Virus record (IMG/VR): IMGVR_UViG_3300032247_000928
Coordinates: 15,904-79,903 of that record
DNA length: 64,000 bases
Direction: 5' to 3' (one strand)
DNA from: a virus
Lineage: Duplodnaviria > Caudoviricetes
The notes beneath the pieces were generated by a model, which did not search any database, was not told where the DNA came from, and was given only the letters and a program-made list of their open reading frames with translations. This document shows positions 7,463 to 63,877 of this stretch, one piece after another (within the stretch, counting starts at the first letter, position 1; each line of letters begins with the position of its first letter). A program made the position numbers and the translations under genes.

Positions 7463-7499
7463 AATTTTCCCCTTATTTTATATTGTAGCATATCCTAAA

Positions 7500-34964: not shown

Positions 34965-37382
34965 CTATGCACCGATCAACATAAGTTCGCTGAATGCTGC
35001 TCCACCTGCTGGTGTAATCCACTGAACTCCAGAACCTGTTGAAGAAAGTACCTGTCCTGATGTTCCTGTTGCTGAACCTGCTGTAAGTGTACCCGTAAGT
35101 GTAGCATTTGAAAGTGTAAGTCCTGCAATTGTTGTTACAGTTGCGCCAGATGCAATTGATGTTGAACCAAGTGTAGGTGCTGAGTATGAAGATACTGTTC
35201 CCCATGATACGTTAGTTCCATCAGATGTTAAGTACTTTCCACTTGCTGAAGTCTGTGAAGGAAGAACTGCATTTGCTGCACCTGCCTGTGTTGTTGCTCC
35301 AGTACCACCCTTATTGAGGGCAATTGCTGTACCAGACCATGTACCAGTTGCAATAGTTCCAAGTGTTGTAATATTTGTAGAACCAGCCCATGTTGAAACT
35401 GCTGTATTTTCTACGTTTCCAAGTCCAATAGATGTTCTGTGTGTAGATGCTGATTCAGCACTTACAGTATTATCTGCATTGTACTTAGGGAAAGTAATTG
35501 CTGATGGATTAGTTTGTGTAAATATATTTGCACCAAGAGTTGTAGCACCAAGATTTGTTCTTGCAGTTGCTGCATCAGTTGCACCTGTACCACCATTTGC
35601 AATTGGGAGAGTTCCAGTTACACCAGTAGTTAAAGGCAATCCAGTTGCATTAGTAAGAGTTCCTGAAGCAGGTGTACCAAGTACTGGAGTCACAAGTGTA
35701 GGGGATGTAGCAAATACTAAAGCGCCTGAACCAGTCTCATCAGAGATGATTCCAGCAAGTTCAGATGAAGATGTAGAAGCGTGTACAGATAGTTTATCTG
35801 TTGTTACTACTAGTGTCTTTGATGAAGGAATAGTTGTACCGTTGACAGATGTAGCAGTAGCCACACCAAGTGCTGGTGTTGTCAAGGTTGGAGATGTTAA
35901 TGTTTTATTTGTTAATGTTTCTGTTCCAGCAATTGTTGCAAAATCTGCATCAGTAACCGCTGTATTAAATTGTGCAATTGTTCCTGATACTGTATTTGAG
36001 CCAAGAGCAACTGTTTTATTTGTAAGTGTTTCTGTGGCATCTTTTAGTAATGTTCCATTTGCATAGTATGACTTACCTGAAGCAAGATCTATGTGTTCTG
36101 ATGAAGTCCAAGCAGAAGTTGCATTAACCCAGTTAAATGTTTTATTTGTTGTGCCATTTACAGTAATACCAGCGCCATCAGCAGTAGTATTTGTAGGTGT
36201 TGCTACATCTGCAAGAACAATATTCTTGTCTTCAATAACTAGGTTAGTTGAGTTAAGGTTTGTTGTTGTTCCGTTTACTGTCAAATCCCCAGAAATTGTT
36301 AGGTTAACTGCTGTTGCAGTTCCTGTTAACGCTGGTGATGCAAGTGGAGCCTTATCAGCAAGGGCTGTAGTAAGACCTGAAATCTTAGACTGAGCAATTG
36401 CTGCTGCAGAATTAATGTCTGCATCTACGATTGTGTCATTTGCAATCTTTGCTGATGTAATTGCACTATCAGCAATGTCTCCTGTGGCAATTGTTCCATC
36501 TAGAATTTTTGCAGTTGTGATAGCACCGTCAGCAATATCTCCAGCAACAATAGTACCGTCAGCAATCTTAGCAGAAGTAATTGCTGAATCAGCAATATCT
36601 GCTGTAGCGATTGTTCCATCAACAATGTCTGATGATGTAATAGACCCTGTAAGGTTTAACTTACTGTAAGCAATTGCTGCTGATGCATTAATATCAGCGT
36701 TAACAATAGTACCGTCAGCAATCTTAGCAGAAGTAATTGCTGAATCAGCAATATCTGCTGTAGCGATTGTTCCATCTAGAATCATTGTAGATGTAACAGT
36801 TCCTGATGGTAGTGTTACAGTACCTGTAAATGTTGGGGAAGCAAGAGGAGCCTTATTATTAATCTGTGTTTGAATTGCAGAAGTAACACCATCAAGGTAA
36901 CCAATTTCAGTATCTGAAACACCAGTTACACGAGCCTGAATTGCTGTTGTATCTACTGCTAAAGTTAATGTATTTGCTGCATCGTTATAATTTTTTGTTA
37001 TACCTGTACCCGCAGTTAAAGCTGCATCAATTGCATCTTGTGAAAGTTCTGCAATGTCAGATGTTAGGGCTACTGTACCTGATGCATCTGGAAGTGTAAT
37101 TGTGCGATCCGCTGTAGGATCTGTTACCTGAAGAGTAGTCTCGTATGAGTCTTCTGTTGCACCCTCAAAAGTAATGCTTGAACCAAATGATGGGTTTACT
37201 GTTGAGTTAGAGTCAACGAAGTAATCAAGGTCAATCCAGTGATTTGTACCATCACCAATTTTAAATTTATTTGTGTCAGTTTCATAACCGATTTCACCTG
37301 CGTTGAGGATTGGGCCATTGCCAGAATTTGTTGAAATCCATTGAGCAGCAGTACCTCTGCGCTGTTGCATTCTTGTTGCCAT
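34965..37382 (-). CDS. fibre-like virion protein with major-tropism-determinant-type N-terminal domain
   Basis: [15 protein letters not shown]...[18 protein letters not shown]-terminus; [16 protein letters not shown] repeats; [11 protein letters not shown] repeats. Confidence 0.75.
36546..36776. repeat. exact 75-bp direct repeat inside the fibre gene (36546-36620 and 36702-36776)
   Basis: AACAATAGTACCGTCAGCAATCTTAGCAGAAG...GATTGTTCCATC is identical in both copies. Confidence 0.9.
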
Positions 37383-51392: not shown

Positions 51393-51453
51393 GTATAGAC
51401 ACGGACAAATCGGACATGATTGGTGTGGTATTCGTCACATTTTTCCGGGCCCC

Positions 51454-51474
51454 TGTGGATAACTATGTGGATAA
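51454..51474. promoter_or_regulatory. DnaA-box pair
   Basis: TGTGGATAA-cta-TGTGGATAA (two perfect boxes). Confidence 0.7.
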
Positions 51475-51556
51475 GTAATGTGGTGTATATCACATATCCC
51501 ATATGTCCGATTTGATATATCTTGTGGTGATAATCTACTTAACATAATATATGTAG

Positions 51557-51579
51557 ATGTCAGACCCCCCTGCTATAAT
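51557..51579 (+). promoter_or_regulatory. RecA-NDp-like promoter
   Basis: ATGTCAGAC-8-TATAAT, then SD GAAAGGAG and ATG 51615. Confidence 0.7.
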
Positions 51580-51614
51580 TCTAGTATAAAGAAAAATAAA
51601 GAAAGGAGTTCCAA

Positions 51615-51755
51615 ATGAACTCACTATATGAAAATAGAAACTCACTAGAAACCTATGAACAGGTTCGTGAAAGACTCGCAGAAAGTATCTGCGATGAATG
51701 TCAGTACGCTTGCTTCGTACACAAGAGCGATTGCTCTAAGAAAGGTCGTAAATAA
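51615..51755 (+). CDS. 46-aa Cys/His protein
   Basis: MNSLYENR...CDECQYACFVHKSDC; strong SD; not in the track. Confidence 0.7.
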   Translation: MNSLYENRNSLETYEQVRERLAESICDECQYACFVHKSDCSKKGRK

Positions 51756-51756
51756 T

Positions 51757-51930
51757 ATGACAACTAATTCAATGTTAAATCCAGCGGATAGCCTAACACC
51801 TATCCTACACTTTCCTAATCGTGTTACCTATCGTTGCTACTACTGTAACGAAAGCGTATACTTTCATAAAGGTCTAAATCGTTGGGCTACTAACGATACA
51901 CTTGATATTCGCTGTAAGGAGGCTAAATAA
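51757..51930 (+). CDS. small CxxC protein
   Basis: MTTNSML...CYYC...C; start moved to the ATG after the upstream stop. Confidence 0.6.
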   Translation: MTTNSMLNPADSLTPILHFPNRVTYRCYYCNESVYFHKGLNRWATNDTLDIRCKEAK

Positions 51931-52085
51931 TGTCATACATGAAACAACTAATTGACACAGTTCTTAACTGTGAAATCTGCGGAGGTGAGGGAATTACTGA
52001 CGCATGGGTTTCACAAGATGGAGACTTTGACTTTGAGTGGTGCGATTGCAACCCTCATCATATAAGCATGGAGGTGTTTGCGTAA
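51930..52085 (+). CDS. 51-aa zinc-finger mini-protein
   Basis: CEICGGEG...WCDC; TAATG-coupled at both ends. Confidence 0.7.
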   Translation: MSYMKQLIDTVLNCEICGGEGITDAWVSQDGDFDFEWCDCNPHHISMEVFA

Positions 52086-52255
52086 TGACATACATGGAAT
52101 TACTTCAAGAGGTAAAAGCAATATCCGCAGAAATTCGTGGAGATAAAGATAGCGGAAACGCTTACTTACTTGGTTACTTGTGGGCTTCACTCACAAACGA
52201 ACAACAGATTGAAACAGCAGAATCGTTTCGTAAATATTTAGAGGAGGATAAATGA
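52085..52255 (+). CDS. hypothetical protein
   Basis: MTYMELLQEVK...; SD GGAGG. Confidence 0.7.
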   Translation: MTYMELLQEVKAISAEIRGDKDSGNAYLLGYLWASLTNEQQIETAESFRKYLEEDK

Positions 52256-52341
52256 AACACTTTTTAGAAACAGGTAATGCACTTTTCTTTTTCTCATTTT
52301 TTATTTTAATTTATTCTGCATGGTTACACTTGACAGAATGA
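52252..52341 (+). CDS. 29-aa single-TM peptide
   Basis: MKHFLETGNALFFFSFFILIYSAWLHLTE; SD GAGGAGG. Confidence 0.55.
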   Translation: MKHFLETGNALFFFSFFILIYSAWLHLTE

Positions 52342-52359
52342 TCTAAAAATTCCGGGCCG

Positions 52360-52380
52360 TTTTCCACAGGCTGTGGATAA
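52360..52380. promoter_or_regulatory. DnaA-box pair (inverted)
   Basis: TTTTCCACA-ggc-TGTGGATAA. Confidence 0.7.
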
Positions 52381-52421
52381 CTTATGTGATTAGAAACACA
52401 TTTAAGTTACGGCGTGTCGCC

Positions 52422-52450
52422 TTGACTTTTTGGGTATGCCATGCTAAGAT
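52422..52450 (+). promoter_or_regulatory. sigma-A-type promoter preceded by GGCGTGTCGC
   Basis: TTGACT-17-TAAGAT. Confidence 0.55.
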
Positions 52451-52537
52451 TCTCTTTATACAATTAAATAAACTAGCAAAACAATGTGACCAACCTCACA
52501 TTTAATTTGTCTGATATGTCCGAATTTAGATTTGTAT

Positions 52538-52560
52538 TTGTCAGCCAAAAATGCTAGACT
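52538..52560 (+). promoter_or_regulatory. RecA-NDp-like promoter
   Basis: TTGTCAGCC-8-TAGACT; also TTGTAT-17-TAGACT. Confidence 0.7.
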
Positions 52561-52595
52561 TGCCATATCAAGAAAAAAGAAAAGAAGGTGACACC

Positions 52596-52811
52596 ATGTC
52601 AGCAAACATCTACACAATATCCAACCTACTTGTAGGAAAACAATACATCTCCAAAACAATGCGTGGAGAAATCATAAGTGCAGAGCCACACCCACAACCA
52701 ATTTGGTACGATGGGTGCGAAACTTATCTCGTAGAAATTGCACCAAATAGCGGTAGCAATACTTGGGGTCGCAAGACTTTCCGCACAGTTGCAGTAAGAA
52801 AGGAAAACTAA
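52596..52811 (+). CDS. small beta-barrel-like hypothetical protein
   Basis: MSANIY...; SD GAAGGTG; start moved. Confidence 0.7.
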   Translation: MSANIYTISNLLVGKQYISKTMRGEIISAEPHPQPIWYDGCETYLVEIAPNSGSNTWGRKTFRTVAVRKEN

Positions 52812-52812
52812 T

Positions 52813-52995
52813 ATGTATAAATTAACACTAGAAACTTTTAATGGTACAGTAAAAACCATTTCCCTACCATCTAAGGGTGCAGTTGCACAATTCGTAACTT
52901 CATACCCTGACACTTTGCCAGTTGGCGTATCAGTAAAAATTGCATGTGACGCACTCGGCGTTCGTGGCACACTTCGTGGAAAGGCTTCTCTCTAA
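52813..52995 (+). CDS. hypothetical protein, paralogue of 50703
   Basis: KLTLETFNG...VKIACDALGVRGTLRG. Confidence 0.7.
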   Translation: MYKLTLETFNGTVKTISLPSKGAVAQFVTSYPDTLPVGVSVKIACDALGVRGTLRGKASL

Positions 52996-53201
52996 TGGTA
53001 CTAATTGAACACAATCTTCGTTTCGTTACAGAATTAGACGAAACAAATCCAACCGCTATTCGTTTGCTCAATCTTGAAAAAGAAATGCAAATTGAAATGC
53101 TTGAAGGCTTGCTAAAAGAAGTTCTTGCACCTATGATTCAGCCTGCGTTAGATGAAGTTAATGAAGGCAATTCATGGGCAGTTCTAAAGGTGGCAGACTA
53201 A
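52995..53201 (+). CDS. hypothetical protein
   Basis: Coupled ORF, 68 aa. Confidence 0.7.
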   Translation: MVLIEHNLRFVTELDETNPTAIRLLNLEKEMQIEMLEGLLKEVLAPMIQPALDEVNEGNSWAVLKVAD

Positions 53202-53377
53202 TGATGACACGCAAGGACTATGTAAAAGTTTCAGAAATTCTTGCAGGTTATCATCAAGCCATGATTGACAATTTCTGGTGGGAAGATTTGGTAAATGATT
53301 TCGCTCTAATGTTTGAGCAAGACAATCCAAATTTTAGTCGTCAAAAATTTACAGAAGCCTGCGAAGCGGGAATGTAA
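53201..53377 (+). CDS. conserved small phage protein
   Basis: MMTRKDY...DNPNFSRQKFTEAC; coupled. Confidence 0.7.
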   Translation: MMTRKDYVKVSEILAGYHQAMIDNFWWEDLVNDFALMFEQDNPNFSRQKFTEACEAGM

Positions 53378-53382
53378 AAATA

Positions 53383-53411
53383 AGATCCTGAGCATGATTT
53401 AAAACTGCTTA
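53383..53411 (+). ncRNA. H-type pseudoknot element (copy 1)
   Basis: AGATC-C-TGAGCA-T-GATTT-AAAAC-TGCTTA, 5 nt after a stop codon. Confidence 0.65.
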
Positions 53412-53436
53412 AAGTTTCAACTAAATTTCCGGGGCG

Positions 53437-53457
53437 TTTTCCACAGGTTTATCCACA
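53437..53457. promoter_or_regulatory. DnaA-box pair
   Basis: TTTTCCACA-ggt-TTATCCACA. Confidence 0.7.
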
Positions 53458-53511
53458 AGCTTTACGTTGTGAGATTTATCACATGCGATCTTGCCCGTTT
53501 AAGATTTGTAT

Positions 53512-53534
53512 TTGTCACCCTGAGATGATAGGAT
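53512..53534 (+). promoter_or_regulatory. RecA-NDp-like promoter
   Basis: TTGTCACCC-8-TAGGAT. Confidence 0.6.
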
Positions 53535-53565
53535 ATTTATATCAACTTAAAGAAAGAAGGCTCAC

Positions 53566-53715
53566 ATGACCGCTTATGTATGTATGCAGTGTAATGAAAA
53601 TGCAGTAGATGTAACTGAACTCTATTGCTTCCGTTGCTACCTTGACCGAGAGGTAGAGGCGATGATAGAATATGACCTTATTGACCAACTATTCGTAACG
53701 AAAGAGGCTAACTAA
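53566..53715 (+). CDS. 49-aa zinc-finger mini-protein
   Basis: CMQC...CFRC; SD GAAGG; not in the track. Confidence 0.7.
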   Translation: MTAYVCMQCNENAVDVTELYCFRCYLDREVEAMIEYDLIDQLFVTKEAN

Positions 53716-53930
53716 TGGAATACCTATACTCAGTATCTTGCACCTATGACGGAGATAAGTCTCCACACTGGGTTGGTCGCTATGATAATGCGATTGACGC
53801 AGTTAATTCTTGGAATAAGTTTATTGACTGGGGCATGGCATTAGAATATGCTACAGTTAATTTCTCAGAGCCTAATGGCAAAATGCACACAAAGATATTC
53901 TATCGTAATGGAAATGTAGGGGGTAAGTAA
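53715..53930 (+). CDS. hypothetical protein
   Basis: Coupled, 71 aa. Confidence 0.7.
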   Translation: MEYLYSVSCTYDGDKSPHWVGRYDNAIDAVNSWNKFIDWGMALEYATVNFSEPNGKMHTKIFYRNGNVGGK

Positions 53931-54028
53931 TGTCAAAAGTAATGTTATGGTTCAACGATGAAGTTAATGAAGCGTTAGACTACGCTAATGAAATGGAACT
54001 AATGGGATTAGATAAGGAGAATAAATAA
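53930..54028 (+). CDS. 32-aa acidic peptide
   Basis: TAATG-coupled at both ends. Confidence 0.5.
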   Translation: MSKVMLWFNDEVNEALDYANEMELMGLDKENK

Positions 54029-54363
54029 TGGGTTCAGTTACAGCGTTGGGAATTAAAGAAATGGTACTTGACTTGGAGACTCAGATTCTCTATCACCTTA
54101 AGGCTAATCACTATCCACCTGTACCCGCAGAAATGGTAACTGCGTGTATTGATGCGATTGATGCCTTCTATGATGAGGACTATGACCGCATGATTGATAT
54201 GCCAAAGGTTGGTGACTTTCAGATTACCTATCGTGGCTCAACACAAGCACCTGCACACGCTATCGTAGACCAACACCACCTTGATGTATTTATTGATTCT
54301 GTTGATGACTGGCAAGATGGGTCAGATGACTTTCCACTCTCACTAGAATATGATGAGGAGTAA
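54028..54363 (+). CDS. hypothetical protein
   Basis: ILYHLKANHYPPVP...AIVDQHHLDVF; SD AAGGAG. Confidence 0.75.
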   Translation: MGSVTALGIKEMVLDLETQILYHLKANHYPPVPAEMVTACIDAIDAFYDEDYDRMIDMPKVGDFQITYRGSTQAPAHAIVDQHHLDVFIDSVDDWQDGSDDFPLSLEYDEE

Positions 54364-54366
54364 TAA

Positions 54367-54606
54367 ATGCCTGCTACAATAAACAACATGGAACTCGTAT
54401 GGGCAGATAAGTTAACACCAGACTCATTGATGGTTGATGATCTGATAAAAATTGATGGAGATTTAATTGAAATCATTAATATCAGTTCTGATGGCACGGG
54501 CGATAACTATTTTATTGACTGTGTTGATGTGTATGGTGAGCCAGATACAATTACACTTGCGTATGATAAATATGTTGATTTATATGTGTATGTAGACAAA
54601 GACTAA
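54367..54606 (+). CDS. small OB/SH3-like hypothetical protein
   Basis: 79 aa; SD GAGGAG. Confidence 0.65.
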   Translation: MPATINNMELVWADKLTPDSLMVDDLIKIDGDLIEIINISSDGTGDNYFIDCVDVYGEPDTITLAYDKYVDLYVYVDKD

Positions 54607-54686
54607 TAAAAATCCCGGGGCAAAATGTCCGATTTACCCTTTTACGTTAAGTTGCATTTTTGCCTTAACTTTGCTAATATTATTAT

Positions 54687-54827
54687 ATGAAAAAGACACC
54701 TGAAGAGTTACGTAAACTTATGGAGTTACGTCGTTCTAATGCAGCGTCTGCGATCCCAAATAAAAAAAAGTACAATAGGAAAAAATGTCAGTCCCTATTG
54801 CTACAATTAAAGAAAGAAAGCGAGTAA
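54687..54827 (+). CDS. 46-aa basic peptide (leaderless)
   Basis: MKKTPEELRKLMELRRSNAASAIPNKKKYNRKK...; 6 nt after TTGCAT-17-TAATAT. Confidence 0.6.
   Translation: MKKTPEELRKLMELRRSNAASAIPNKKKYNRKKCQSLLLQLKKESE
54785..54807 (+). promoter_or_regulatory. RecA-NDp-like promoter
   Basis: ATGTCAGTC-8-TACAAT. Confidence 0.65.
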
Positions 54828-54833
54828 CCCACC

Positions 54834-55556
54834 ATGTCAAAATTACTTCGTTCAAAAGATAGGAAAGTTGCTAATGCAGTTACACCAAATGGAAAGCAAG
54901 CAAGTATCGCCAACACATTCGGACTACCAGCAGGCAAGGCTTATTCATGTCCTGGAGCGACTAGCGTATGCGAGACTGTTTGCTACGCTGGCAAGCTTGA
55001 AAAGATATTCCCAACCGTAAAAGTTAACTTACTTCATAACTGGGAACTATTGAAAGACGCAGACTATGAAACTATGGTCTCACTTCTTAATGAAATGATA
55101 ATGGACTTCAAGAAAGACTGTATCAAGAAAGACGCACCTAAACTATTCCGCATTCACTGGGACGGCGACTTCTTTAATGATACATATGCATATGCATGGA
55201 AGCAAATTATCATGAACCATAGTGATATTCAATTCTGGGTCTATACTAGAGTTAAGTCTGCAGCCCTAATGCTTAATGGCATTGCTAATCTTTCTTTATA
55301 CTATTCTACAGATAGCGAGAATAAAGAAACTGGTATTGAACTTAAAACGGATCATGGAATATCCCTTGCATACCTTGCCAAAAATTTTCAATTAGGACAA
55401 GCAGACATGAAGGAACTTACAGGCAAGCCTGGCGCTAAGTGCCCTGAGAATAAAAAGGCCATTCCGCTTATCTCAAGCAATGGGTCTGCCTGCGCTAGTT
55501 GTAAGTTGTGTATTTATCAGAAATCTGATATAGTATTTAGCGCAACCAAAAAGTAA
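54834..55556 (+). CDS. gp88-like protein (radical-SAM-like Cys motif)
   Basis: FGLPAGKAYSCPGATSVCETVCYA...FRIHWDGDFF...WVYTR; C-terminal C..CxxCxxC. Confidence 0.6.
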   Translation: MSKLLRSKDRKVANAVTPNGKQASIANTFGLPAGKAYSCPGATSVCETVCYAGKLEKIFPTVKVNLLHNWELLKDADYETMVSLLNEMIMDFKKDCIKKDAPKLFRIHWDGDFFNDTYAYAWKQIIMNHSDIQFWVYTRVKSAALMLNGIANLSLYYSTDSENKETGIELKTDHGISLAYLAKNFQLGQADMKELTGKPGAKCPENKKAIPLISSNGSACASCKLCIYQKSDIVFSATKK

Positions 55557-55565
55557 GGGAAACCT

Positions 55566-55634
55566 ATGCTAACAATAACTATACTAACTATCATAGTCGG
55601 AATTGTCCTATTCGCAGGGCTAGGGCATGAGTGA
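55566..55634 (+). CDS. 22-aa single-TM peptide
   Basis: MLTITILTIIVGIVLFAGLGHE; SD AAGGGA. Confidence 0.45.
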   Translation: MLTITILTIIVGIVLFAGLGHE

Positions 55635-55747
55635 CGCAAATCACACAGAAAGGGTCTCAATATATGAGATTTTCTAGGCTAGGAATTGTATTTCCGAGAT
55701 TTTTCGGATATACTAGAAATATCAACAACTACAGAAAAGGAAACAAA

Positions 55748-55909
55748 ATGACAGTAGCAACAGCAACTTACAAGGTCGGCGACCTCTTTACAACACAGAA
55801 GTCAAAGGTCACAGGTCAAATCTTGGAAATCAAGCCAACAGATAAGAACACAGTTCGTGTGAAGTTAGATGTAAATGGCAACACACGCTGGACAACTTGG
55901 AAGGCGTAA
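55748..55909 (+). CDS. small KOW/SH3-like protein
   Basis: YKVGDLFTT..VTGQILEI; promoter TTGTAT-17-TATACT at 55686; start moved. Confidence 0.7.
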   Translation: MTVATATYKVGDLFTTQKSKVTGQILEIKPTDKNTVRVKLDVNGNTRWTTWKA

Positions 55910-55958
55910 GCCTTTCATAGTCGCCAATGTACAGCGACTCTAAATAAGTGGCAGGAAC

Positions 55959-55986
55959 TATCCTGAGCAAGATACAAAAAGGCTCA
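55959..55986 (+). ncRNA. H-type pseudoknot element (copy 2)
   Basis: TATC-C-TGAGCA-A-GATA-CAAAAA-GGCTCA. Confidence 0.55.
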
Positions 55987-55991
55987 CTTTA

Positions 55992-56014
55992 ATGTCAGAC
56001 CAACCCCCTATAAT
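55992..56014 (+). promoter_or_regulatory. RecA-NDp-like promoter
   Basis: ATGTCAGAC-8-TATAAT. Confidence 0.7.
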
Positions 56015-56046
56015 AGAAATATAACCCACAAAAGAAAAGGAACACC

Positions 56047-56463
56047 ATGTCAAGAGCAATAACAGTAAAGGTGGCAACACCAAAAGTAATCAAGGCTTTG
56101 GAAACAAAGTTAGAAACAATCAAGAAAGACAAAGAGAACGAAGCAAGCAACGAAGCAAAGTTCCAAAAACTTAATGAAAAGTGGAAAAAGGAAATTGTTG
56201 CTTTTGCAATCGCAAATATCAAGAAGGCTGAAAATGTACGCAGTAACTATCGTTCTTGGAACAATCAGTTAAACCTTGACTTTGACATTACAGTTTCAGA
56301 ACTGGATATGCCAAAGCAACCTGAGCGTGATTTCACAACTATGCACGACCACACATATCGTGAAATGGTAGAGGAAATTAACAACGCACTTTCTATTCTC
56401 CGCATGACAGATGAGGAAACAGTTAATGCTTCTACAATGAAGCAAATTGCTCGTTATCTCTAA
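56047..56463 (+). CDS. hypothetical protein
   Basis: 138 aa; SD AAAGGA. Confidence 0.8.
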   Translation: MSRAITVKVATPKVIKALETKLETIKKDKENEASNEAKFQKLNEKWKKEIVAFAIANIKKAENVRSNYRSWNNQLNLDFDITVSELDMPKQPERDFTTMHDHTYREMVEEINNALSILRMTDEETVNASTMKQIARYL

Positions 56464-56569
56464 ATGAGGTTGGGTGGGGTGTAAAAGCCCCACTCCAATT
56501 CGCCAGGCTGATTAGGGCGATCACAGAAATACTATAGAGCAAGGTTACTGCCGACCTAAAGACGCAGAC

Positions 56570-56596
56570 CACCTGAGTAAGTGCCAAAACTGCTCA
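56570..56596 (+). ncRNA. H-type pseudoknot element (copy 3)
   Basis: CAC-C-TGAGTA-A-GTG-CCAAAAC-TGCTCA. Confidence 0.55.
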
Positions 56597-56705
56597 CCAA
56601 TATTTATTCAAGTGACTGCATAAATATGCGGGGGCCGGAAAAATGTGATGAGCATCACCTATATTAAGTCTCACTATTTAAGATTCATGGGTTTACGGTT
56701 GACAG

Positions 56706-56728
56706 TTGTCGGTACCCGCTGCTAGACT
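56706..56728 (+). promoter_or_regulatory. RecA-NDp-like promoter
   Basis: TTGTCGGTA-8-TAGACT. Confidence 0.72.
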
Positions 56729-56756
56729 TATAATAACAACAACAGAAAGAGGCCCC

Positions 56757-57197
56757 ATGGACCAAACAGTAAACTATGAAACAGAAATATTTCTTCGTGA
56801 TTCATTGGCAAAGTCATCTCTCAAGATAAGTGAACTTGAAGTTGACCTTGAAACAGTAAAAAAATTCAAAGAAGATTTAATCATCCAAAGCAACACATTG
56901 CACCGTAAGCATACTAACCTGCAGGATTCTCTTAAAGAGTGGACACGTGCAGAGTTAGCAAATGAAGATATCACAATTGAGCAAGCACAAGCGCTTGCAG
57001 AAATTGGTGAATTCACACTAACAAAATCATATGACGTAACAGTTGTAGTAGAGCACTCATTCACCGTTGAACTTGAAGCAAGCGATGACATTGATGACGT
57101 CCTTGGTACCCTTGATTTCAGTGTTGACTCTTATCACACAACAATTGATAACGTTGACTATTCAATTGTTGAAACTAACTATGATGAAACAAATTAA
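56757..57197 (+). CDS. coiled-coil hypothetical protein
   Basis: MDQTVNY...; SD AGAGG; start moved. Confidence 0.75.
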   Translation: MDQTVNYETEIFLRDSLAKSSLKISELEVDLETVKKFKEDLIIQSNTLHRKHTNLQDSLKEWTRAELANEDITIEQAQALAEIGEFTLTKSYDVTVVVEHSFTVELEASDDIDDVLGTLDFSVDSYHTTIDNVDYSIVETNYDETN

Positions 57198-57220
57198 TAT
57201 TTCATAGGGGGCTATGAAAC

Positions 57221-57283
57221 AAAGACCTGTCACATGTCTTTAAACTGGATGAGGGCCCTGAGCACGGCCACGTAAACTGCTCA
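57221..57283 (+). ncRNA. tandem pseudoknot elements (copies 4-5)
   Basis: AAAGAC-C-TGTCACA-T-GTCTTT-AAAC-TGGATG (weak P2), then GGCC-C-TGAGCA-C-GGCC-ACGTAAAC-TGCTCA-CTTTTT. Confidence 0.6.
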
Positions 57284-57404
57284 CTTTTTATTGCAAAAAT
57301 TTCCGGGCCCCAAAACTTGATCTTGTCAAGCGACACGCCATGTGATTTACGACACGTTTAAGAAATGTCCGAATTGCCCCATGTCTGATTAGCCTGATTT
57401 GCAT

Positions 57405-57427
57405 ATGTCAGTCTGTCTTGCTATACT
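57405..57427 (+). promoter_or_regulatory. RecA-NDp-like promoter
   Basis: ATGTCAGTC-8-TATACT; also TTGCAT-17-TATACT. Confidence 0.7.
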
Positions 57428-57457
57428 TAAATTTCAACAACAAAAAGGAGAAAACTC

Positions 57458-58480
57458 ATGGCACATGACCTAGAAACACAAAACGGCAAGGCATCTTTTG
57501 CATCTTTCCGTGAACCTGCATGGCATGGATTGGGTACTGTATTCACAGAAGAAAAAACAACCGCAGAAATGCTAGAGGCTGCAAACCTCAATGGTTGGAA
57601 TGTTCGTCTTGAAGATATGCCTATCCCTGCACACTTAACTACAGACAAGGCGTACCAATATGTATTGCGTACTAATCCTACAGAATCAACTCAGACCGAT
57701 ATTCTTGGTGTAGTTGGTGAGCGTTATCATGTAATGCAGAATGAAGATTTATTTTCATTCGGTGACAATATTCTTGACGGCGGGGGACGATGGGAAACCG
57801 CTGGTTCAATCAAGGGTGGGCGTGTAGTATTTGGCGCACTTGCTCTTGAGCGTGAAACTGTACTAGACCCTAATGGTGTTGCAGATAAGGTAAAAACTTA
57901 TTTGCTTATCAACACATCACACGATGGTTCAATCGCAATTCAAGCAAGCATCACACCTGTTCGTGTTGTGTGCGCTAATACTCTTAATCTTGCTCTTGGT
58001 GGCGTAGGTCGTAAGAAGAACAAGGGAATCAAGCAATCTTTCAAGATTCGCCACACACAGACAGCAAGCGGTAAGGTAGAGGTTGCTCGCCAGACTCTTG
58101 GTCTTGCTAATGCTTACATGGACGAATTTGACCTCATGGCTAAGGCTATGATTGAGAAAGAAGTCAATGCTAAGTCTTTCAATGATATTCTTCTCGCTGC
58201 TTATCCTAAGCCAGAAAAAGATGCTAAGGGTGCAATCAAGAAGTGGGAAAATAAAATTGACATGGTAAATGATATTTACACAGGTGAATTTAACGGCATG
58301 ATTGCTGGTAATGCTTGGGGTGCGTTTAATGCACTTACTGAACGCCTTGATTGGTACCGCACAGCAAGAGGTGGTTCTAACGAATCTATCCTTGCAAGCG
58401 CATCAGGATTTGACCCTGCAATTAACGCAGAGAAGAATCGTTTGCTTAAAGTTGTGCAGAATGTAATGTCTCTCGCATAA
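57458..58480 (+). CDS. DUF932 / TIGR03299 phage-plasmid family protein
   Basis: REPAWHGLG, LGVVGERYHVMQN, ETAGSIKGGRVVF, SHDGS, TPVRVVCANTL, IRHT. Confidence 0.88.
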   Translation: MAHDLETQNGKASFASFREPAWHGLGTVFTEEKTTAEMLEAANLNGWNVRLEDMPIPAHLTTDKAYQYVLRTNPTESTQTDILGVVGERYHVMQNEDLFSFGDNILDGGGRWETAGSIKGGRVVFGALALERETVLDPNGVADKVKTYLLINTSHDGSIAIQASITPVRVVCANTLNLALGGVGRKKNKGIKQSFKIRHTQTASGKVEVARQTLGLANAYMDEFDLMAKAMIEKEVNAKSFNDILLAAYPKPEKDAKGAIKKWENKIDMVNDIYTGEFNGMIAGNAWGAFNALTERLDWYRTARGGSNESILASASGFDPAINAEKNRLLKVVQNVMSLA

Positions 58481-58485
58481 TAAAA

Positions 58486-58514
58486 AATTCCTAGGCATGA
58501 ATTAAAACTACCTG
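58486..58514 (+). ncRNA. H-type pseudoknot element (copy 6), 3 nt before the tRNA
   Basis: AATTC-C-TAGGCA-T-GAATT-AAAAC-TACCTG; compensatory changes in both stems. Confidence 0.6.
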
Positions 58515-58517
58515 CAA

Positions 58518-58591
58518 GATCTCATAGCTCAATTGGTTAGAGCGCTACCCTGTCACGGTAGAGGCTACGGGTTCAAGTCCCGTTGGGGTCG
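58518..58591 (+). tRNA. trnD: tRNA-Asp (GUC), CCA not encoded
   Basis: Acceptor GATCTCA/TGGGGTC, D arm GCTC/GAGC, anticodon arm CTACC-CTGTCAC-GGTAG, T arm ACGGG-TTCAAGT-CCCGT, discriminator G. Confidence 0.92.
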
Positions 58592-58706
58592 CAGCGTAAA
58601 TGGGGCCCCGGAAAATCGGACATATAGGACATTAACTAATTAGATTAATATAAAAACTTTATTAAGAAGACTTGCTTTTTTCCCTGGAAGCGTGTAAAAT
58701 AAATGT

Positions 58707-58865
58707 ATGACCACAAAAACAAATGAAAAAACCATCGCCCAACTCGTAGAGGATATCTATGAGGACCACTTCTCTCATATTGATTTCATGGATAATATGG
58801 GGGGAGATTGTGATTGTGCAATTCACTCTACCCTGGAAACAATTCTACAGTATTGGAGTAAGTAA
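58707..58865 (+). CDS. 52-aa hypothetical protein (leaderless)
   Basis: 6 nt after TTGCTT-17-TAAAAT; CDCAIH motif. Confidence 0.6.
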   Translation: MTTKTNEKTIAQLVEDIYEDHFSHIDFMDNMGGDCDCAIHSTLETILQYWSK

Positions 58866-59014
58866 TGCTAGGATATGAAAAATCTGATTTAGATATGATG
58901 ATTGCTAGTGTAAACATTGCTTCTAAGCAGTTGGGCAATTCAGGTATTGCTAAGGGTCTAGAAGAAGTATCTAGTTTCTTACAAGGTCTATGGGCAGAAG
59001 GGTACTTTGACTAA
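58865..59014 (+). CDS. 49-aa hypothetical protein
   Basis: MLGYEKSDLD...LQGLWAEGYFD; coupled at both ends. Confidence 0.65.
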   Translation: MLGYEKSDLDMMIASVNIASKQLGNSGIAKGLEEVSSFLQGLWAEGYFD

Positions 59015-59196
59015 TGCAAATTAAATCCCGTGAAATTACATACCGCCAAATAGTTGAGCAGATCTTCTTTGAGGACGGAACAGAGTTGGTAGTTACAACT
59101 GGTTGGCCTGAAGGACAGGAGTTTGACATTGATGTTAAATTAGACTGGGTAACAGGAGAGCCTGAGTGGGCAGAGGAGTATGTTCATGAAGCATAA
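59014..59196 (+). CDS. hypothetical protein
   Basis: Coupled, 60 aa. Confidence 0.65.
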   Translation: MQIKSREITYRQIVEQIFFEDGTELVVTTGWPEGQEFDIDVKLDWVTGEPEWAEEYVHEA

Positions 59197-59299
59197 GCAC
59201 CATTGGCTATGTAGTGATGTACCAGGTGTTTATACTTGTACATTTAATTGTGGGTTTGGATATTGGAATCCTAAGACAGAACAAATAGAGGAGCAATAA
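59186..59299 (+). CDS. 37-aa His/Cys peptide
   Basis: MKHKHHWLC...CTFNCG; SD GAGGAG; coupled to the next gene. Confidence 0.5.
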   Translation: MKHKHHWLCSDVPGVYTCTFNCGFGYWNPKTEQIEEQ

Positions 59300-59502
59300 T
59301 GTGGACTAAGTATGATTATGTATGTAGTGATTGTGATGCTCTTGTTGAGATAACTACCCTGCAAAATATCAGGGAGTGGCGTGGCTGGTGTTCTTGTGGA
59401 TCTGCTAATCTAATTAATATTAGTGTCATGGATGCCTTTGAGCCTGTGATGAGTATCACACCTAAGAACCTTGTAAAAATCAACACCAACCCCTATAATT
59501 AA
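59299..59502 (+). CDS. zinc-ribbon protein
   Basis: CSDC...CSC. Confidence 0.65.
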   Translation: MWTKYDYVCSDCDALVEITTLQNIREWRGWCSCGSANLINISVMDAFEPVMSITPKNLVKINTNPYN

Positions 59503-59519
59503 TATAAAGGAGAAAACAA

Positions 59520-59702
59520 ATGCCAATGTATGACTTGAAGGTAATCGTAGAATATAACTACGAGGTAGAAGCAGATAACGCAGACGAAGCAGAAAAGCTT
59601 GGTTGGGAGTACGAGGACTACGGATTCCCTGAAGTTTATTCTATTGATGTAGATGAACAGTATGAGGAAGATGAAGTTGAATTAGATGAGGAAGTAATCT
59701 AA
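59520..59702 (+). CDS. small acidic protein
   Basis: YEVEADNADEAEKL motif; SD AAGGAG. Confidence 0.7.
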   Translation: MPMYDLKVIVEYNYEVEADNADEAEKLGWEYEDYGFPEVYSIDVDEQYEEDEVELDEEVI

Positions 59703-59866
59703 TGGAAATGCCAACCTTCATTGAGTATATGAAGATTCATGAGATTAGTCTTATGCAAGACTTAGAGAAGATTGACTATGTAAACAATCATCACTTCTAT
59801 AGACTTAAAGAAGCAGAAATTTATAACACCCGTCATCTATTGTCAGTAGCAGAGGATAGAATATAA
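59702..59866 (+). CDS. 54-aa hypothetical protein
   Basis: Hand translation MEMPTFIEYMKIHEISL...; coupled. Confidence 0.55.
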   Translation: MEMPTFIEYMKIHEISLMQDLEKIDYVNNHHFYRLKEAEIYNTRHLLSVAEDRI

Positions 59867-59868
59867 TT

Positions 59869-60138
59869 ATGGAAAATGACCCAACAATACTAGAACCATA
59901 TCTACAACGCATGGTAGACGCAGGCATGGACGGTGCAGATATAATGCATGGTCATCTTAAAACTCTCATGCTAGAAGCAGAAACACAACTAACCCTAGCC
60001 CAAGAAGCAGAAGACGAATCAGAGGAAGCAATGGATTCTATGGAGCGCCGCTATTGGGAAGGTGTATGCGAAGCCTATGGAGAACTATATAGTTTGACAT
60101 ATGCAATTGCATTTGCGAAGGGAAAACAAAATGCCTAA
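59869..60138 (+). CDS. acidic hypothetical protein
   Basis: DSMERRYWEG motif, 89 aa. Confidence 0.7.
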   Translation: MENDPTILEPYLQRMVDAGMDGADIMHGHLKTLMLEAETQLTLAQEAEDESEEAMDSMERRYWEGVCEAYGELYSLTYAIAFAKGKQNA

Positions 60139-60310
60139 GTGTTTAGACTGCGGTCAAACCGAGCAATTTTGGTATGACGAAACATCTCATAAGCTTGGTA
60201 AATATAATGAAGATGGGGATCTTCTAGACGTTGAGACAGATTGGTATGATGACGTTACGAACGGTCATTGTGGAGTCTGTGACTCAGAAAATATTGAGGG
60301 TAGGCTGTAG
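60131..60310 (+). CDS. zinc-ribbon protein
   Basis: MPKCLDCG...CGVCDS; start moved. Confidence 0.7.
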   Translation: MPKCLDCGQTEQFWYDETSHKLGKYNEDGDLLDVETDWYDDVTNGHCGVCDSENIEGRL

Positions 60311-60372
60311 GTCTTGACAGTCCCCTGCATTTTTGATAGAATTATATAAACCACTAGTAGAAAGTAACCACC

Positions 60373-61101
60373 ATGCCAAACTGGGTATATAACGGATTAA
60401 CTGTAGAAGGTAATCCTGAACAAGTTAAGAAAATGATTGTTCAATTAAATAAACCATTTGTTTATTCTGTTCAATCTAATGGCGATTTAGCCTATACAGT
60501 TAGACAGCGCAAGTATGTTAATCCTATCTTTGCATTCCATAATATCTATTCATATAAAGATGCAGGTATTACTGATGAGCAATATCATGGTGTTCCTACA
60601 TTCCCCGAAAAATTTGATATGAAATTTGACGGCAATGACTGGTATAACTTTAACAACCGTGAGTGGGGCACTAAGTGGGATGTAGCCGTAGCAGAAGATG
60701 ACCAGTATAGTAATACTAGTATTCAAGAAGCAGAGAACGGTGAAAACTATGTAGTTCACTATAACTTTGAAACAGCATGGTCTAGGCCAATCCCTGCATT
60801 GCAAAAACTATCTGCTCAATATCCAACATTACTCTTTACCTTATCATATGAGGAAGAAACAGGTTGGGGTGGGGAGATGGAATTCTTACGTGGTGAGATT
60901 ATTTCATCATCAGAATATGACAGTATGTGTAGAGATTGTGATGCCACAGATTGCATGGAATACTGCGAAAATGATTGTGGTGAGATATGTTCTGTATGCC
61001 ATTGGCTAGGAGAAGCAGACTTAGAGGCAGTTGCAGAATGTGATGACCACAAGATATACTTAGATACAAAAGTTCCTGAATACCGAAAGGCAGATGCATG
61101 A
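60373..61101 (+). CDS. Api92/YubB-like (DUF1281) protein with Cys-rich C-terminus
   Basis: MPNWVYN.L, DWYNFNNREWGTKWD, FETAWSRP, YEEETGWGG; own promoter TTGACA-17-TAGAAT at 60314. Confidence 0.75.
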   Translation: MPNWVYNGLTVEGNPEQVKKMIVQLNKPFVYSVQSNGDLAYTVRQRKYVNPIFAFHNIYSYKDAGITDEQYHGVPTFPEKFDMKFDGNDWYNFNNREWGTKWDVAVAEDDQYSNTSIQEAENGENYVVHYNFETAWSRPIPALQKLSAQYPTLLFTLSYEEETGWGGEMEFLRGEIISSSEYDSMCRDCDATDCMEYCENDCGEICSVCHWLGEADLEAVAECDDHKIYLDTKVPEYRKADA

Positions 61102-61412
61102 GACCCGATGACAAAGATAAACTAAACCAATGCTTAACAATACTAGAAAGCACAGACTTAGGTCTTTCATTAGTATGGCTATGGACGTGGAGTACAGTCA
61201 AGAACTTTATGGAAGATACTGAATACCGCTTTAATTTCTCAGAAGATGAGATTTGGGATAAACTAGTAGAGGCTACTAAGGCTGGTCATGGTTTCTCTCT
61301 GGAGTATGGTGCAGAGCAGAACTATGAAGACATTCGTGACTGGCTAACAGATAACGATATCATGACGGACCTAATGTTTGAGGAGGATGAAGATGAAGAC
61401 GACAGTGAGTGA
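61098..61412 (+). CDS. acidic hypothetical protein
   Basis: 104 aa, coupled. Confidence 0.7.
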   Translation: MRPDDKDKLNQCLTILESTDLGLSLVWLWTWSTVKNFMEDTEYRFNFSEDEIWDKLVEATKAGHGFSLEYGAEQNYEDIRDWLTDNDIMTDLMFEEDEDEDDSE

Positions 61413-61728
61413 TTTAATTTATGCAGGTTCATTTGCAGTTGACTCAGGCCAAGCAATGGTTGGTGACCCATGCTATCTAGATGGTTGGGAACCGTGGGAA
61501 GATGGTACACCTTTTGATCATGAGAATAAGTCTGGGCAGTATGGCTATCTAGGTGCAAGCGGTGTAACTCTTAAACAAAACTATGGCACATTAGGTGCTG
61601 CAGATGCAGTTGTATTTTCAACGGGATATGGAGATGGGCTCTACCCTGTATACGTACAACTAAATTCCGATGGACGTGTTGCTAAGGTAGTTATTGATTT
61701 TGAGGGAGACATTGAGGCGGACGAGTGA
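61405..61728 (+). CDS. DUF4241-like protein
   Basis: FAVDSGQAMVGDP...FSTGYGDGLYPVY; GTG start. Confidence 0.55.
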   Translation: MSDLIYAGSFAVDSGQAMVGDPCYLDGWEPWEDGTPFDHENKSGQYGYLGASGVTLKQNYGTLGAADAVVFSTGYGDGLYPVYVQLNSDGRVAKVVIDFEGDIEADE

Positions 61729-61792
61729 ACTGGACACAGTTAACTTTATTTGATATCATTGAAGTAAACGACCTAACAGAGGAGCAAGAATA

Positions 61793-62173
61793 ATGGGAGC
61801 ACGTATTAATTTTGTATTTAAAACAGATGAGTTCGCTGTAGGAGAACCTGAGTCATATGTAGTTCTCTATTCACACTGGGGCCAAGATTCCTGGGAGTCA
61901 GACCTGGCAGAGGCGCTGCAGCATGCACGTCCTAGATGGGATGACGCTTCATATGGTACCCGCATGATTATTAGTTATCTTATTCAACATAACATTTTGG
62001 ATGAGACAGGGTTTGGTATTTATTCTATCAGTGATATTTCTAGGGACCTAGGAGAGCAGACGGTCATCATTGACTTCACTGACAAGACTATTACTGATAC
62101 TCAGCCCGTGGAATGGGACGCATTCATAAATGCATACGGGCCAAAGCTTTTCGCTGAGCATGTGATAGGGTAG
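61793..62173 (+). CDS. hypothetical protein
   Basis: MGARINF...LYSHWG motif; SD GAGGAG. Confidence 0.75.
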   Translation: MGARINFVFKTDEFAVGEPESYVVLYSHWGQDSWESDLAEALQHARPRWDDASYGTRMIISYLIQHNILDETGFGIYSISDISRDLGEQTVIIDFTDKTITDTQPVEWDAFINAYGPKLFAEHVIG

Positions 62174-62259
62174 GGTCACCCTGTCCATATAATGAGACGG
62201 GGGTCAGGTGTTTGTGGTGGGGACTTGACCCCCTCTCAACCTTTTGATAGAATGGAGAG

Positions 62260-62499
62260 ATGATGAGTAGAGGCTTTCACTTAAGGGCAAGCAAGGAAGA
62301 AAAGGTTGCCACAACCATTGGTCGCCTTCTATCTGACTTTACCCTTGACCTTGAGGCAGTTGGAAAGTATCTTGCAACAGCCAATCCATATGTTATTTAT
62401 GCGAGGGCAGTTGAAGTTCTAGAATCAGCAGAGTATAATAAAACCACAGCAGAATACAGAGAGATAGGAAAATACTATGGCAACGACCTTTTCCAATAA
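62260..62499 (+). CDS. hypothetical protein
   Basis: 6 nt after TTGACC-17-TAGAAT. Confidence 0.65.
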   Translation: MMSRGFHLRASKEEKVATTIGRLLSDFTLDLEAVGKYLATANPYVIYARAVEVLESAEYNKTTAEYREIGKYYGNDLFQ

Positions 62500-62743
62500 A
62501 GTAAAAATACTTTCACAGTTTTGGGAACAGTATAGATTTAATGACGAGTATTCTGATTTTGTAGAATATAACGATTTAGGTTTGCCACTTGCACACTTGA
62601 ACGAACAAGGTTTGGCAGTAATCACAACCGAAGGAGAAAATTATATTGCAGAAACATTTGAGTATCTGCTTGCAAGACTTGACTCTGATGACAATGATTT
62701 TACAGAACTAGAAGAAATTTTTACTTCCGCTTCACAGGGGTAA
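62477..62743 (+). CDS. acidic hypothetical protein
   Basis: FVEYNDLGLPLA motif. Confidence 0.7.
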   Translation: MATTFSNKVKILSQFWEQYRFNDEYSDFVEYNDLGLPLAHLNEQGLAVITTEGENYIAETFEYLLARLDSDDNDFTELEEIFTSASQG

Positions 62744-63008
62744 AACTGCCAGGGATCTCACGGTTGCAGTCTCGTGGGATTTTTGGCCCCCGGAAATTGG
62801 ACATATAGTACAAACCACCCAAACCATTTTTTGCCAAAATAACATTACGATGCAAACCTAAAAATCCCTGGAGCTTTTTTCCAAAACCTTTCTATCATAC
62901 AAACCTTATATTGTCAAACCTCCAATTGATCAAACCTCAAAGCCAGAATATATGGTTTGTCTATTAGTGGTATTACGAACACTCTTTAAATTCCCTGGAC
63001 TTTTCAGG

Positions 63009-63031
63009 TTGTCAGTGGTCTCTGTTACAAT
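63009..63031 (+). promoter_or_regulatory. RecA-NDp-like promoter (exact consensus)
   Basis: TTGTCAGTG-8-TACAAT. Confidence 0.7.
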
Positions 63032-63235
63032 ACCGCCCCATTAGGGCGCCCCGCTTTTGGCGGGGGATTACGAAGATCAATCCAAATCCCTACAGTATAT
63101 ACAGTATAAAACCTTCAAACCTTTTTGCTGGATTTTGCAGAAATATCCAAACCTTTTTATATTTTTTCTGGATATTTTGTACATTTTCTGGACATTTTTG
63201 TACATTTTGTACAGGGTTTTTTGTCCATAAAAGGT

Positions 63236-63264
63236 TTGACAAATAGAAAGGTTTGGGGTATAAT
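63236..63264 (+). promoter_or_regulatory. consensus sigma-70/sigma-A promoter inside the iteron region
   Basis: TTGACA-17-TATAAT; no ORF directly downstream. Confidence 0.6.
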
Positions 63265-63547
63265 CCGCATGCAAGATATAAGGTTTGAGAGGTTTGACAA
63301 ATGGGAAGGTTTGTGATAGGAGGTTTGGCCGTTAGACATTACGAAGCCATCTGTCTAATATGCTCAATAACATGGTAGACAAACCAGATATGATATGTCT
63401 GACACATCTAAAAAATATCAGTAACATTTAAATTGCTATCAAACCTCTCAAACCTCTCAATTTGGACCTATATATAGTGGGTATTTAAGGTTTTAAACCA
63501 TACATATTGTGTAAAAATCCAGGGGACAAATAAGGTATACTTGGTAT

Positions 63548-63877
63548 ATGATATTTACAGATGAAGCAATAAAGAAAGTAGCAAACCTTATTACAGAATC
63601 TCAGATAACAACTCCTGGAAAGCCACAGTTTTTGAGGGTATCGGTTTCTCCTGGAGGATGTTCTGGTTTACGCTATCAAACCTATTTTGATTATGAAGAA
63701 AAAGAAGGTGATTCGGTATATCCTTTTGAAGGTTTTTCTCTTAGGGTGGATAAACTCTCCGACCCATATCTACAGGGTTCAACTTTTGATTTTGTAGACA
63801 CCATAGAAAAACAAGGTTTTACAATAGATAACCCTAATGCTCAAGGCTCTTGTGCCTGTGGAGATAGTTTTCACTAA
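63548..63877 (+). CDS. erpA: A-type Fe-S carrier (HesB/IscA/ErpA family)
   Basis: LRVSVSPGGCSGLRY...FTIDNPNAQGSCACGDSF; leaderless after TATACT. Confidence 0.92.
   Translation: MIFTDEAIKKVANLITESQITTPGKPQFLRVSVSPGGCSGLRYQTYFDYEEKEGDSVYPFEGFSLRVDKLSDPYLQGSTFDFVDTIEKQGFTIDNPNAQGSCACGDSFH

Follow-up and report, generated by a model that had tools for sequence, protein, structure and literature searches.

A 64,000-nucleotide (nt) stretch of DNA from a virus of the Caudoviricetes (IMG/VR record IMGVR_UViG_3300032247_000928, positions 15,904 to 79,903; here called the window) carries a class of promoters whose upstream box is almost certainly an element of the type recognized by PafBC, the WYL-family activator that senses single-stranded DNA (ssDNA) and acts at the LexA-independent RecA-NDp promoters of actinobacteria. 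In particular, nine co-oriented sites between 51.5 and 63.0 kb of the window match the class pattern (A/T)TGTC(A/G)(G/C)-N10-TAnnnT, and these nine sites are real promoters of one class. An original prediction, made from the sequence alone, had listed eight of them with identical spacing, had likened them to the RecA-NDp consensus, and had proposed that the phage drives the genes downstream with the host activator. All eight were recovered on the + strand where they had been placed, and a ninth was added at 59840.

The TGTC core is present at all nine sites, eight of which read TGTC(A/G)G and one TGTCAC. The distance between the box and the -10 is identical throughout, with ten nt following the 6-mer (12 nt from the C of GTC to TAnnnT), and every site has a TAnnnT -10, which is extended by TGn in seven. 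The seven sites from 51557 to 57405 lie 25-40 nt upstream of a Shine-Dalgarno sequence and ATG. When the sites were examined for a -35, none was found at 51557, 54785, 55992, 59840 or 63009, and TTGnnn was found at 17-18 nt in the other four. The class as a whole is thus not defined by a -35 and falls outside the canonical SigA/HrdB -35/-10 arrangement. (The -35-like TTGTAT or TTGCAT hexamers that had been reported for several copies are present at 52538, 53512 and 57405, with a TTGACA at 56706; the remaining five sites have none.) In the window, TGTCRG-N10-TANNNT has nine matches when 1.03 are expected, a count that none of 100 shuffles reached, and the looser pattern used initially has 10 matches when 3.4 are expected. 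Note that the sole match to TGTCRG-N10-TANNNT outside of 51.5-63.1 kb, at 37054, was set aside as a chance match: it is antisense inside a - strand open reading frame (ORF; 34965-37382), lacks TGn and has no gene start.

The same architecture is conserved across 80 related loci (1.16 Mb), in which the gene strand has 752 matches to TGTC-N12-TANNNT and the opposite strand 175. When the spacing was varied, TGTCAG-Nk-TANNNT gave a single sharp peak at k=10, with 551 matches on the gene strand versus 27 on the other, and no more than 168 at any other spacing; the smaller counts at k=15-16 reflect the orthologues of three promoters in which there is another hexamer resembling a -10. Moreover, in a count that was unbiased with respect to the box, TGTCAG was found at -26 of 316 of 3309 TGnTAnnnT sites, when compared to 35 for the runner-up hexamer. 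We also aligned orthologous promoters by an anchor on the downstream sequence and not on the motif. In the resulting footprint, conservation was 0.82-0.91 for TGTC, 0.87 for the G two bases on, and 0.84-0.91 for the T, A and T of the -10, with the predicted start region also conserved and the spacer at only 0.5-0.65. This footprint indicates that TGTC.G and the -10 are under selection. Counted across the whole contig, as had been suggested along with the eight sites, the motif forms one block plus a tenth site at a gene for a Cas4-like nuclease; that gene adjoins the phage recA, and the site is conserved in a complete relative (G001). In five complete relatives, good copies (7 to 11 each) are likewise confined to one block of 6-11 kb and are co-oriented with its genes.

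For PafBC, the consensus reported in vivo is tGTCgg(N10)tA(N3)T, the 5' part of which lies at -23 to -28 and is referred to as the '-26 element'; its GTC triplet is invariant among the recA promoters of actinobacteria and is recognized through two arginines in the helix-turn-helix of PafB, and the promoters have no -35 consensus and a -10 that is read by the housekeeping SigA (PMC8635444). RecA-NDp promoters are functional in Streptomyces too (PMC5087735). The likeness drawn in the original prediction holds for the core, the spacing and the type of -10: the phage promoters share with PafBC promoters the TGTCRG core with its invariant GTC, the 12-nt gap from C to TAnnnT and the housekeeping -10, and a -35 is dispensable at five of the nine phage sites. 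The phage copies differ from PafBC promoters in that they are found on a lytic-type genome at about nine per 12 kb, head genes of unknown function and not repair genes, add a -35 in four cases, and in no case have an accompanying LexA box. Since a 6-nt core is very unlikely to match at one exact position by chance, the phage box is almost certainly PafBC-type. The individual promoters and the other features of the block are listed in Table 1. (Note that the -10 of P8 ends 6 nt 5' of the ATG at 59869, which is a leaderless geometry of the kind that is common in Actinobacteria, and that P9 points into a GC-rich hairpin within an 800-bp non-coding, iteron-rich region.)

Table 1. Box promoters (P1 to P9) and other features of the block. 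Coordinates are those of the window unless given as contig coordinates.
Feature	Position	Strand	Description
P1	51557..51579	+	ATGTCAG box, 10 nt, extended -10 TGnTATAAT; no -35; four small genes downstream (51615-52255)
P2	52538..52560	+	TTGTCAG box, TGnTAGACT; -35-like TTGTAT at 17 nt; genes 52596-53377
P3	53512..53534	+	TTGTCAC variant (GTC intact), TGnTAGGAT; -35-like TTGTAT; genes 53566-54606
P4	54785..54807	+	ATGTCAG box, TGnTACAAT; no -35; GP88-family gene downstream
P5	55992..56014	+	ATGTCAG box, TATAAT; no -35, no extended -10; gene 56047-56463
P6	56706..56728	+	TTGTCGG box, TGnTAGACT; full TTGACA -35 at 18 nt; second TATAAT 6 nt further downstream, permitting an alternative reading; gene 56757-57197
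P7	57405..57427	+	ATGTCAG box, TGnTATACT; -35-like TTGCAT; DUF932 gene and tRNA-Asp downstream
P8	59840..59862	+	TTGTCAG box, TAGAAT; in the end of the preceding ORF; absent from the original prediction
P9	63009..63031	+	TTGTCAGTGG box, TGnTACAAT; closest copy of the recA-type box
Tenth site	contig 9190-10092 entry, outside the window	-	TGTCAG-N10-TATAAT about 45 nt upstream of the PD-(D/E)XK/Cas4-like nuclease gene
GP88-family gene	54834..55556	+	homologues in BE-cluster Streptomyces phages (terminal repeat) and L5-like mycobacteriophages (right arm)
DUF932 gene	57458..58480	+	homologue in the BE-cluster terminal repeat (annotated DUF945 in phage LukeCage)
tRNA-Asp(GTC)	58518-58592		directly 3' of the DUF932 gene, inside the block
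Canonical promoter without box	60314..60342	+	TTGACA-17-TAGAAT
Canonical promoters without box	62225-62253; 63236-63264		perfect TTGACA-17-TATAAT at 63236
TGTG-N8-CACA palindromes (n=6)	51424-51439, 51479-51494, 52385-52400, 52485-52500, 53468-53483, 59445-59460
Perfect DnaA-box 9-mers	51454-51474, 52372-52380, 53449-53457		TTATCCACA or complement
ATGTCCGA element	51410, 51503, 52516, 54625, 57365, 58616
TTCCGGG	51443, 52350, 53427, 57301, 58607, 62789
Non-coding stretch (800 bp)	62750-63550		contains P9 and the promoter at 63236

A variant of this promoter class is present in Streptomyces phage NootNoot, a cultured relative with a genome of 131,086 bp and a terminal repeat of 10,787 bp. NootNoot has seven TGTC(C/T)-N11-TAGA(C/G)T promoters in each copy of the repeat and none elsewhere in its genome. 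The NootNoot promoters resemble those of the lake phage in having the TGTC box at the same distance from the -10 and differ in that the box is TGTCC, which is further from the host consensus, and in that each has, in addition, a TTGnnn -35 at a distance of 17 or 18 nt from the -10. Because the spacing of this -35 shifts by 1 nt while TGTC stays fixed, the box is positioned relative to the -10. A TGTC...GACA palindrome is found upstream of the box promoters in NootNoot. The existence of the NootNoot variant argues that the promoter class is older than the lake lineage and is tied to the terminal-repeat part of the genome.

The 10.8-kb repeat of BE-cluster phages and the block in the window have GP88-like and DUF932/DUF945 genes in common, in the same order. 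The closest DNA matches to these two genes of the block are found in that repeat and in L5-like mycobacteriophages. SPO1 and T5, for example, have long terminal repeats, and in phages of this kind the repeat region is read first, and by unmodified host polymerase. The block shares with the host-takeover modules of SPO1 and T5 a succession of short cassettes, each made up of small genes behind a strong promoter of its own, whereas the promoters of SPO1 and T5 are of the plain -35/-10 kind. As the block has its homologous counterpart in the direct terminal repeat of the BE cluster, it is probably a host-takeover or early module.

The window is the 3' end of a linear contig of 79,903 bp (estimated completeness 73%) and has a GC content of 30-43% (about 38%). 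Its source is an uncultured lake actinophage of the Stanwilliamsviridae type, with a low-GC genome of roughly 112 kb. In particular, its portal, protease and capsid genes have about 65% DNA identity to those of Streptomyces BE/BK-cluster and Rhodococcus phages, structural and early genes are common to the source phage and Streptomyces/Mycobacterium phages, and the phage also encodes RecA, a DnaE-type polymerase and the Cas4-like nuclease, in a gene order like that of NootNoot. More than 400 IMG/VR contigs are related to it, the complete genomes among them being about 112-119 kb, and related contigs that had been binned into metagenome-assembled genomes (MAGs) bear Lake Mendota sample names. 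The complete relatives encode a WhiB-like protein (E-value about 1e-12), and this family was detected only in Corynebacterium among 14 control genomes and is regarded in the literature as exclusive to Actinobacteria and their phages (PMC10202952); the presence of WhiB therefore points to an actinobacterial host.

The host is probably a low-GC freshwater actinobacterium and not a mycobacterium. A mycobacteriophage-like origin was ruled out by the GC content and by the lake-metagenome relatives; moreover, the right arm of an L5-like mycobacteriophage that shares the GP88 gene lacks any promoter site of this kind. Mycobacterium smegmatis, in which it had been suggested to study the promoters, would thus be a heterologous organism for them. 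A search for the host with the phage RecA across genome contigs returned only phage contigs mis-binned into unrelated MAGs. The phage iron-sulfur (IscA/HesB-like) protein has a homologue of 57-70% identity in 113 of the 121 genomes sampled from the class described below; it fits an actinobacterial gene type but gives no resolution for host assignment.

To describe host-type genomes we used 401 genomes of a class chosen via an 'Aquiluna' MAG that contains a mis-binned relative of the phage. (Note that the tallies for the 401 and the 121 genomes include ten marked as unpublished: G013, G028, G033, G036, G042, G247, G285, G344, G366 and G412; none of the specific claims made here depends on these.) WYL proteins were found in 399 of the 401. 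A genome size of 1.3 Mb is that of streamlined freshwater actinobacteria, and in each of five genomes of this size TTGTCAGTGGC-N7-TAnnnT, followed directly by a LexA box, is present upstream of recA. The first ten bases of P9 are identical to these recA promoters (shared TTGTCAGTGG). Each 1.3-Mb genome that was searched (G204, G249 and G369) has an adjacent pair of WYL ORFs of 307-338 amino acids, and one 'Aquiluna' bin has a similar pafBC-like pair, the pairs overall being roughly 310-340 amino acids; such an adjacent pair plausibly represents the pafB-pafC arrangement, and we refer to these pairs in host-type genomes as pafBC-like. Genome-wide the box is rare in host-type genomes, with about 13 matches each when compared to about 10 for a reversed-pattern control. 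The clear sites in G249 are those at recA, at a DUF6504 gene (again with a LexA box), at an N6/N4 DNA methylase gene and at a gene for a HATPase_c_3 protein; these sites are in the vicinity of genes for an XPB-like helicase and a Nei-type glycosylase and are mostly in leaderless geometry. As judged from gene content, the set of genes headed by the box in G249 has the make-up expected of a damage and defence regulon. Within 21 kb of G249 (contig C1, 411000-433000) there are seven PafBC-type boxes, most of them 6-7 nt 5' of an ATG and thus leaderless, at genes for the DNA methylase, the HATPase_c_3 protein, a trypsin-like peptidase, an Rce1-like protease and a cytochrome-b5-domain protein, beside those for the XPB-like helicase and Nei; this stretch may be a damage or defence island under PafBC.

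We also looked for a reader of the box on the phage itself. WYL, HTH_11 and sigma-70 region 2 domains were not found in the source contig or in five complete relatives, sigma-70 region 4 was not found in the source contig (the only genome searched for it), and no regulator family (PHROG, Pfam) was found among the approximately 30 ORFs of the block. Nor did the actinobacterial SOS box, TCGAAC-N4-GTTCGA, match anywhere in the window with up to 2 mismatches, and an Rfam scan returned tRNA only.

The best and most economical mechanism is that the box is read by the PafBC of the host, and we consider this somewhat more probable than not. The level of PafBC is constant, its activators are ssDNA of 6 nt or more, gaps included, and it has been argued that the source of this ssDNA should be local (PMC11804915). 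We envisage that ssDNA from the injection, end resection or replication of the phage genome would activate the constitutively present PafB-PafC heterodimer of the host, that the active heterodimer would insert between domain 4 of sigma-A and the promoter with the PafB helix-turn-helix reading the GTC triplet, and that host RNA polymerase could thereby start in the absence of a -35 ('sigma adaptation'). Those promoters with an added -35 would retain a PafBC-independent basal mode, resulting in dual control. The binding of PafBC to the box, infection ssDNA as the trigger and the early timing of the block are all steps that we infer. A more far-reaching version, which we regard as tentative, is that infection ssDNA would turn PafBC on in cis at about ten -35-less promoters, and that the amplifying boxes would simultaneously draw PafBC off the host regulon, including the methylase, ATPase and helicase island of host-type genomes.

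Several observations weigh against control of the block by host PafBC. A usable -35 is present at four of the nine promoters (52538, 53512, 56706 and 57405) and at all of those in NootNoot, and these promoters would fire without PafBC. With the second -10-like hexamer at 56706, 57405 and 59840, (A/T)TGTCA could serve as a -35 at a spacing of 16-17 nt, and there are canonical promoters without a box within the same block. Thus, given the -35s at four sites and the canonical promoters, the block is not wired exclusively to the box. Moreover, other conserved upstream elements (ATGTCCGA, CRP-like palindromes and pairs resembling DnaA boxes) show that more factors act there, use as immediate-early promoters would require that PafBC become active within minutes of injection, and a phage protein of unknown fold, or one delivered with the virion, could read the box. 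Finally, the likeness to the PafBC box of the phage's own host is indirect, the comparison having been made with the published consensus and with candidate hosts. The original prediction, with its host activator driving the genes, is borne out as regards the match of the box, the actinobacterial lineage and the absence of WYL, HTH_11 and sigma-70 region 2 domains from the phage genomes searched, and has to be qualified in that box-independent promoters share the block; the presence of pafBC in the host, which it implied, is made plausible by the pafBC-like pairs and by the box at recA in host-type genomes.

We entertained the idea that a factor of unrecognized fold, encoded by the phage or delivered with the virion, reads TGTCAG, in which case the promoters would be a phage-specific middle class that merely resembles PafBC boxes. 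Such a factor might be MotA/AsiA-like, or might be a small protein or the phage WhiB acting on domain 4 of sigma-A. WhiB-family proteins bind this domain, the complete relatives encode one, most ORFs of the block have no known family, and the canonical promoters could express the factor first. We nevertheless think this unlikely: a chance match to both the core and the spacing of PafBC sites would be very improbable (by rough calculation, some 2 in 4096 hexamers multiplied by some 1 in 25 positions), the searches for WYL, HTH_11 and sigma domains (sigma-70 region 4 in the source contig only) were negative, the WhiB gene is far from the block, and NootNoot has the class only in its terminal repeat, the region that unmodified host polymerase reads in SPO1 and T5.

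Somewhat less probable still is that the box serves as an operator at which a protein of the phage or the host shuts early promoters off, or as a decoy that soaks up PafBC and so blunts the damage or defence regulon, the promoters themselves requiring sigma-A alone. Seven of the nine sites have an extended -10 or a -35 with which initiation could proceed independently of a further factor, and each NootNoot promoter has both a -35 and a -10, the box falling in the spacer between them and the TGTC...GACA palindrome lying upstream. A decoy would also accord with numbers, in that some nine boxes lie in 12 kb of the window, as against the 13 or so matches (control about 10) in a 1.3-Mb host-type genome. 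However, both the -35 and TGn are missing at 55992 and 59840, and these two promoters would be weak on their own; moreover, a repressor site need not hold a single-base register with the -10 across hundreds of diverged copies. Lastly, it is very improbable that these are ordinary sigma-A promoters in which TGTCAG is a spacer remnant of duplicated cassettes or a TTGTCA variant of the -35 used with a downstream -10, for although the cassettes have several repeated modules in common and three sites permit the -35 reading, TGTC.G is conserved and the spacer between box and -10 is not, a -10 at 16-18 nt from the box is missing from six of the nine sites, and the same box is found at unrelated host genes such as recA.

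The arrangement can be compared with two known ones. At the middle promoters of phage T4, a MotA box at about -30 is combined with a sigma-70 -10, the spacing of the box varies by 1-2 nt, and MotA and AsiA together bring about 'sigma appropriation'. This process has been used as an analogy for the action of PafBC (PMC8635444). Common to T4 and the phage described here are an upstream box in place of the -35, a -10 read by the primary sigma of the host and the restriction of the class to one temporal or functional set of genes; the T4 factors, however, are phage-encoded, whereas here the spacing is invariant, the box is the site of a host activator and no phage factor is recognizable. SOS boxes are found on temperate phages (CTX-phi, GIL01 and tum of coliphage 186), where they act through relief of repression, mostly at prophage induction. 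As with these LexA-controlled genes, phage transcription would be coupled to the DNA-damage signal of the host, but here by an activator, on a virulent-type genome, in a window without an SOS box.

PafBC boxes have so far been known only as host DNA-damage promoters, and in the literature on RecA-NDp/PafBC and phages we found no description of phage promoters of this type. If the phage does use host PafBC, it would be the first virus seen to exploit the sigma adaptation that a WYL activator brings about, and sigma adaptation would have a viral use parallel to the sigma appropriation of T4. It would also mean that WYL-type ssDNA sensors, which are usually discussed as alarms for damage or phage, can be converted into a phage transcription switch, and this in a widespread and abundant group of lake actinophages, a variant being carried by cultured Streptomyces phages. 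The box would, in addition, give a sequence rule by which uncultured phage contigs could be assigned both the promoter class and an actinobacterial host.

Several other elements were seen in and near the block. Some copies of the TGTG-N8-CACA palindrome, which in the 80-kb contig is found in the block only, are perfect TGTGA-N6-TCACA (a CRP/GlxR-type site). These palindromes were considered as class I activator sites and rejected, their centres being about 65, 74, 81, 85 and 99 nt upstream of predicted starts and in no helical register. The perfect DnaA-box 9-mers, which occur nowhere else in the contig, lie directly 3' of the TTCCGGG GC box and include one pair 3 nt apart. ATGTCCGA and TTCCGGG(G/C)CC recur at the borders of cassettes, in either orientation; in relatives the former is conserved as well as the promoter is, and in NootNoot the equivalent place is taken by the TGTC...GACA palindrome. 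The BE-cluster relatives have 40 or more tRNAs elsewhere in their genomes, whereas the block has the single tRNA-Asp. On the contig, outside of the window, there are genes resembling those for GDP-mannose dehydratase/epimerase (contig 1249-2331) and of the tryptophan-halogenase family (contig 6876-8369). Finally, the non-coding stretch around P9 is rich in iteron-like repeats (AGGTTTG/CAAACCT) and has a duplicated AGGTTTGACAAAT and, just 3' of P9, the GC-rich hairpin; it is a candidate origin, packaging site or terminus region.

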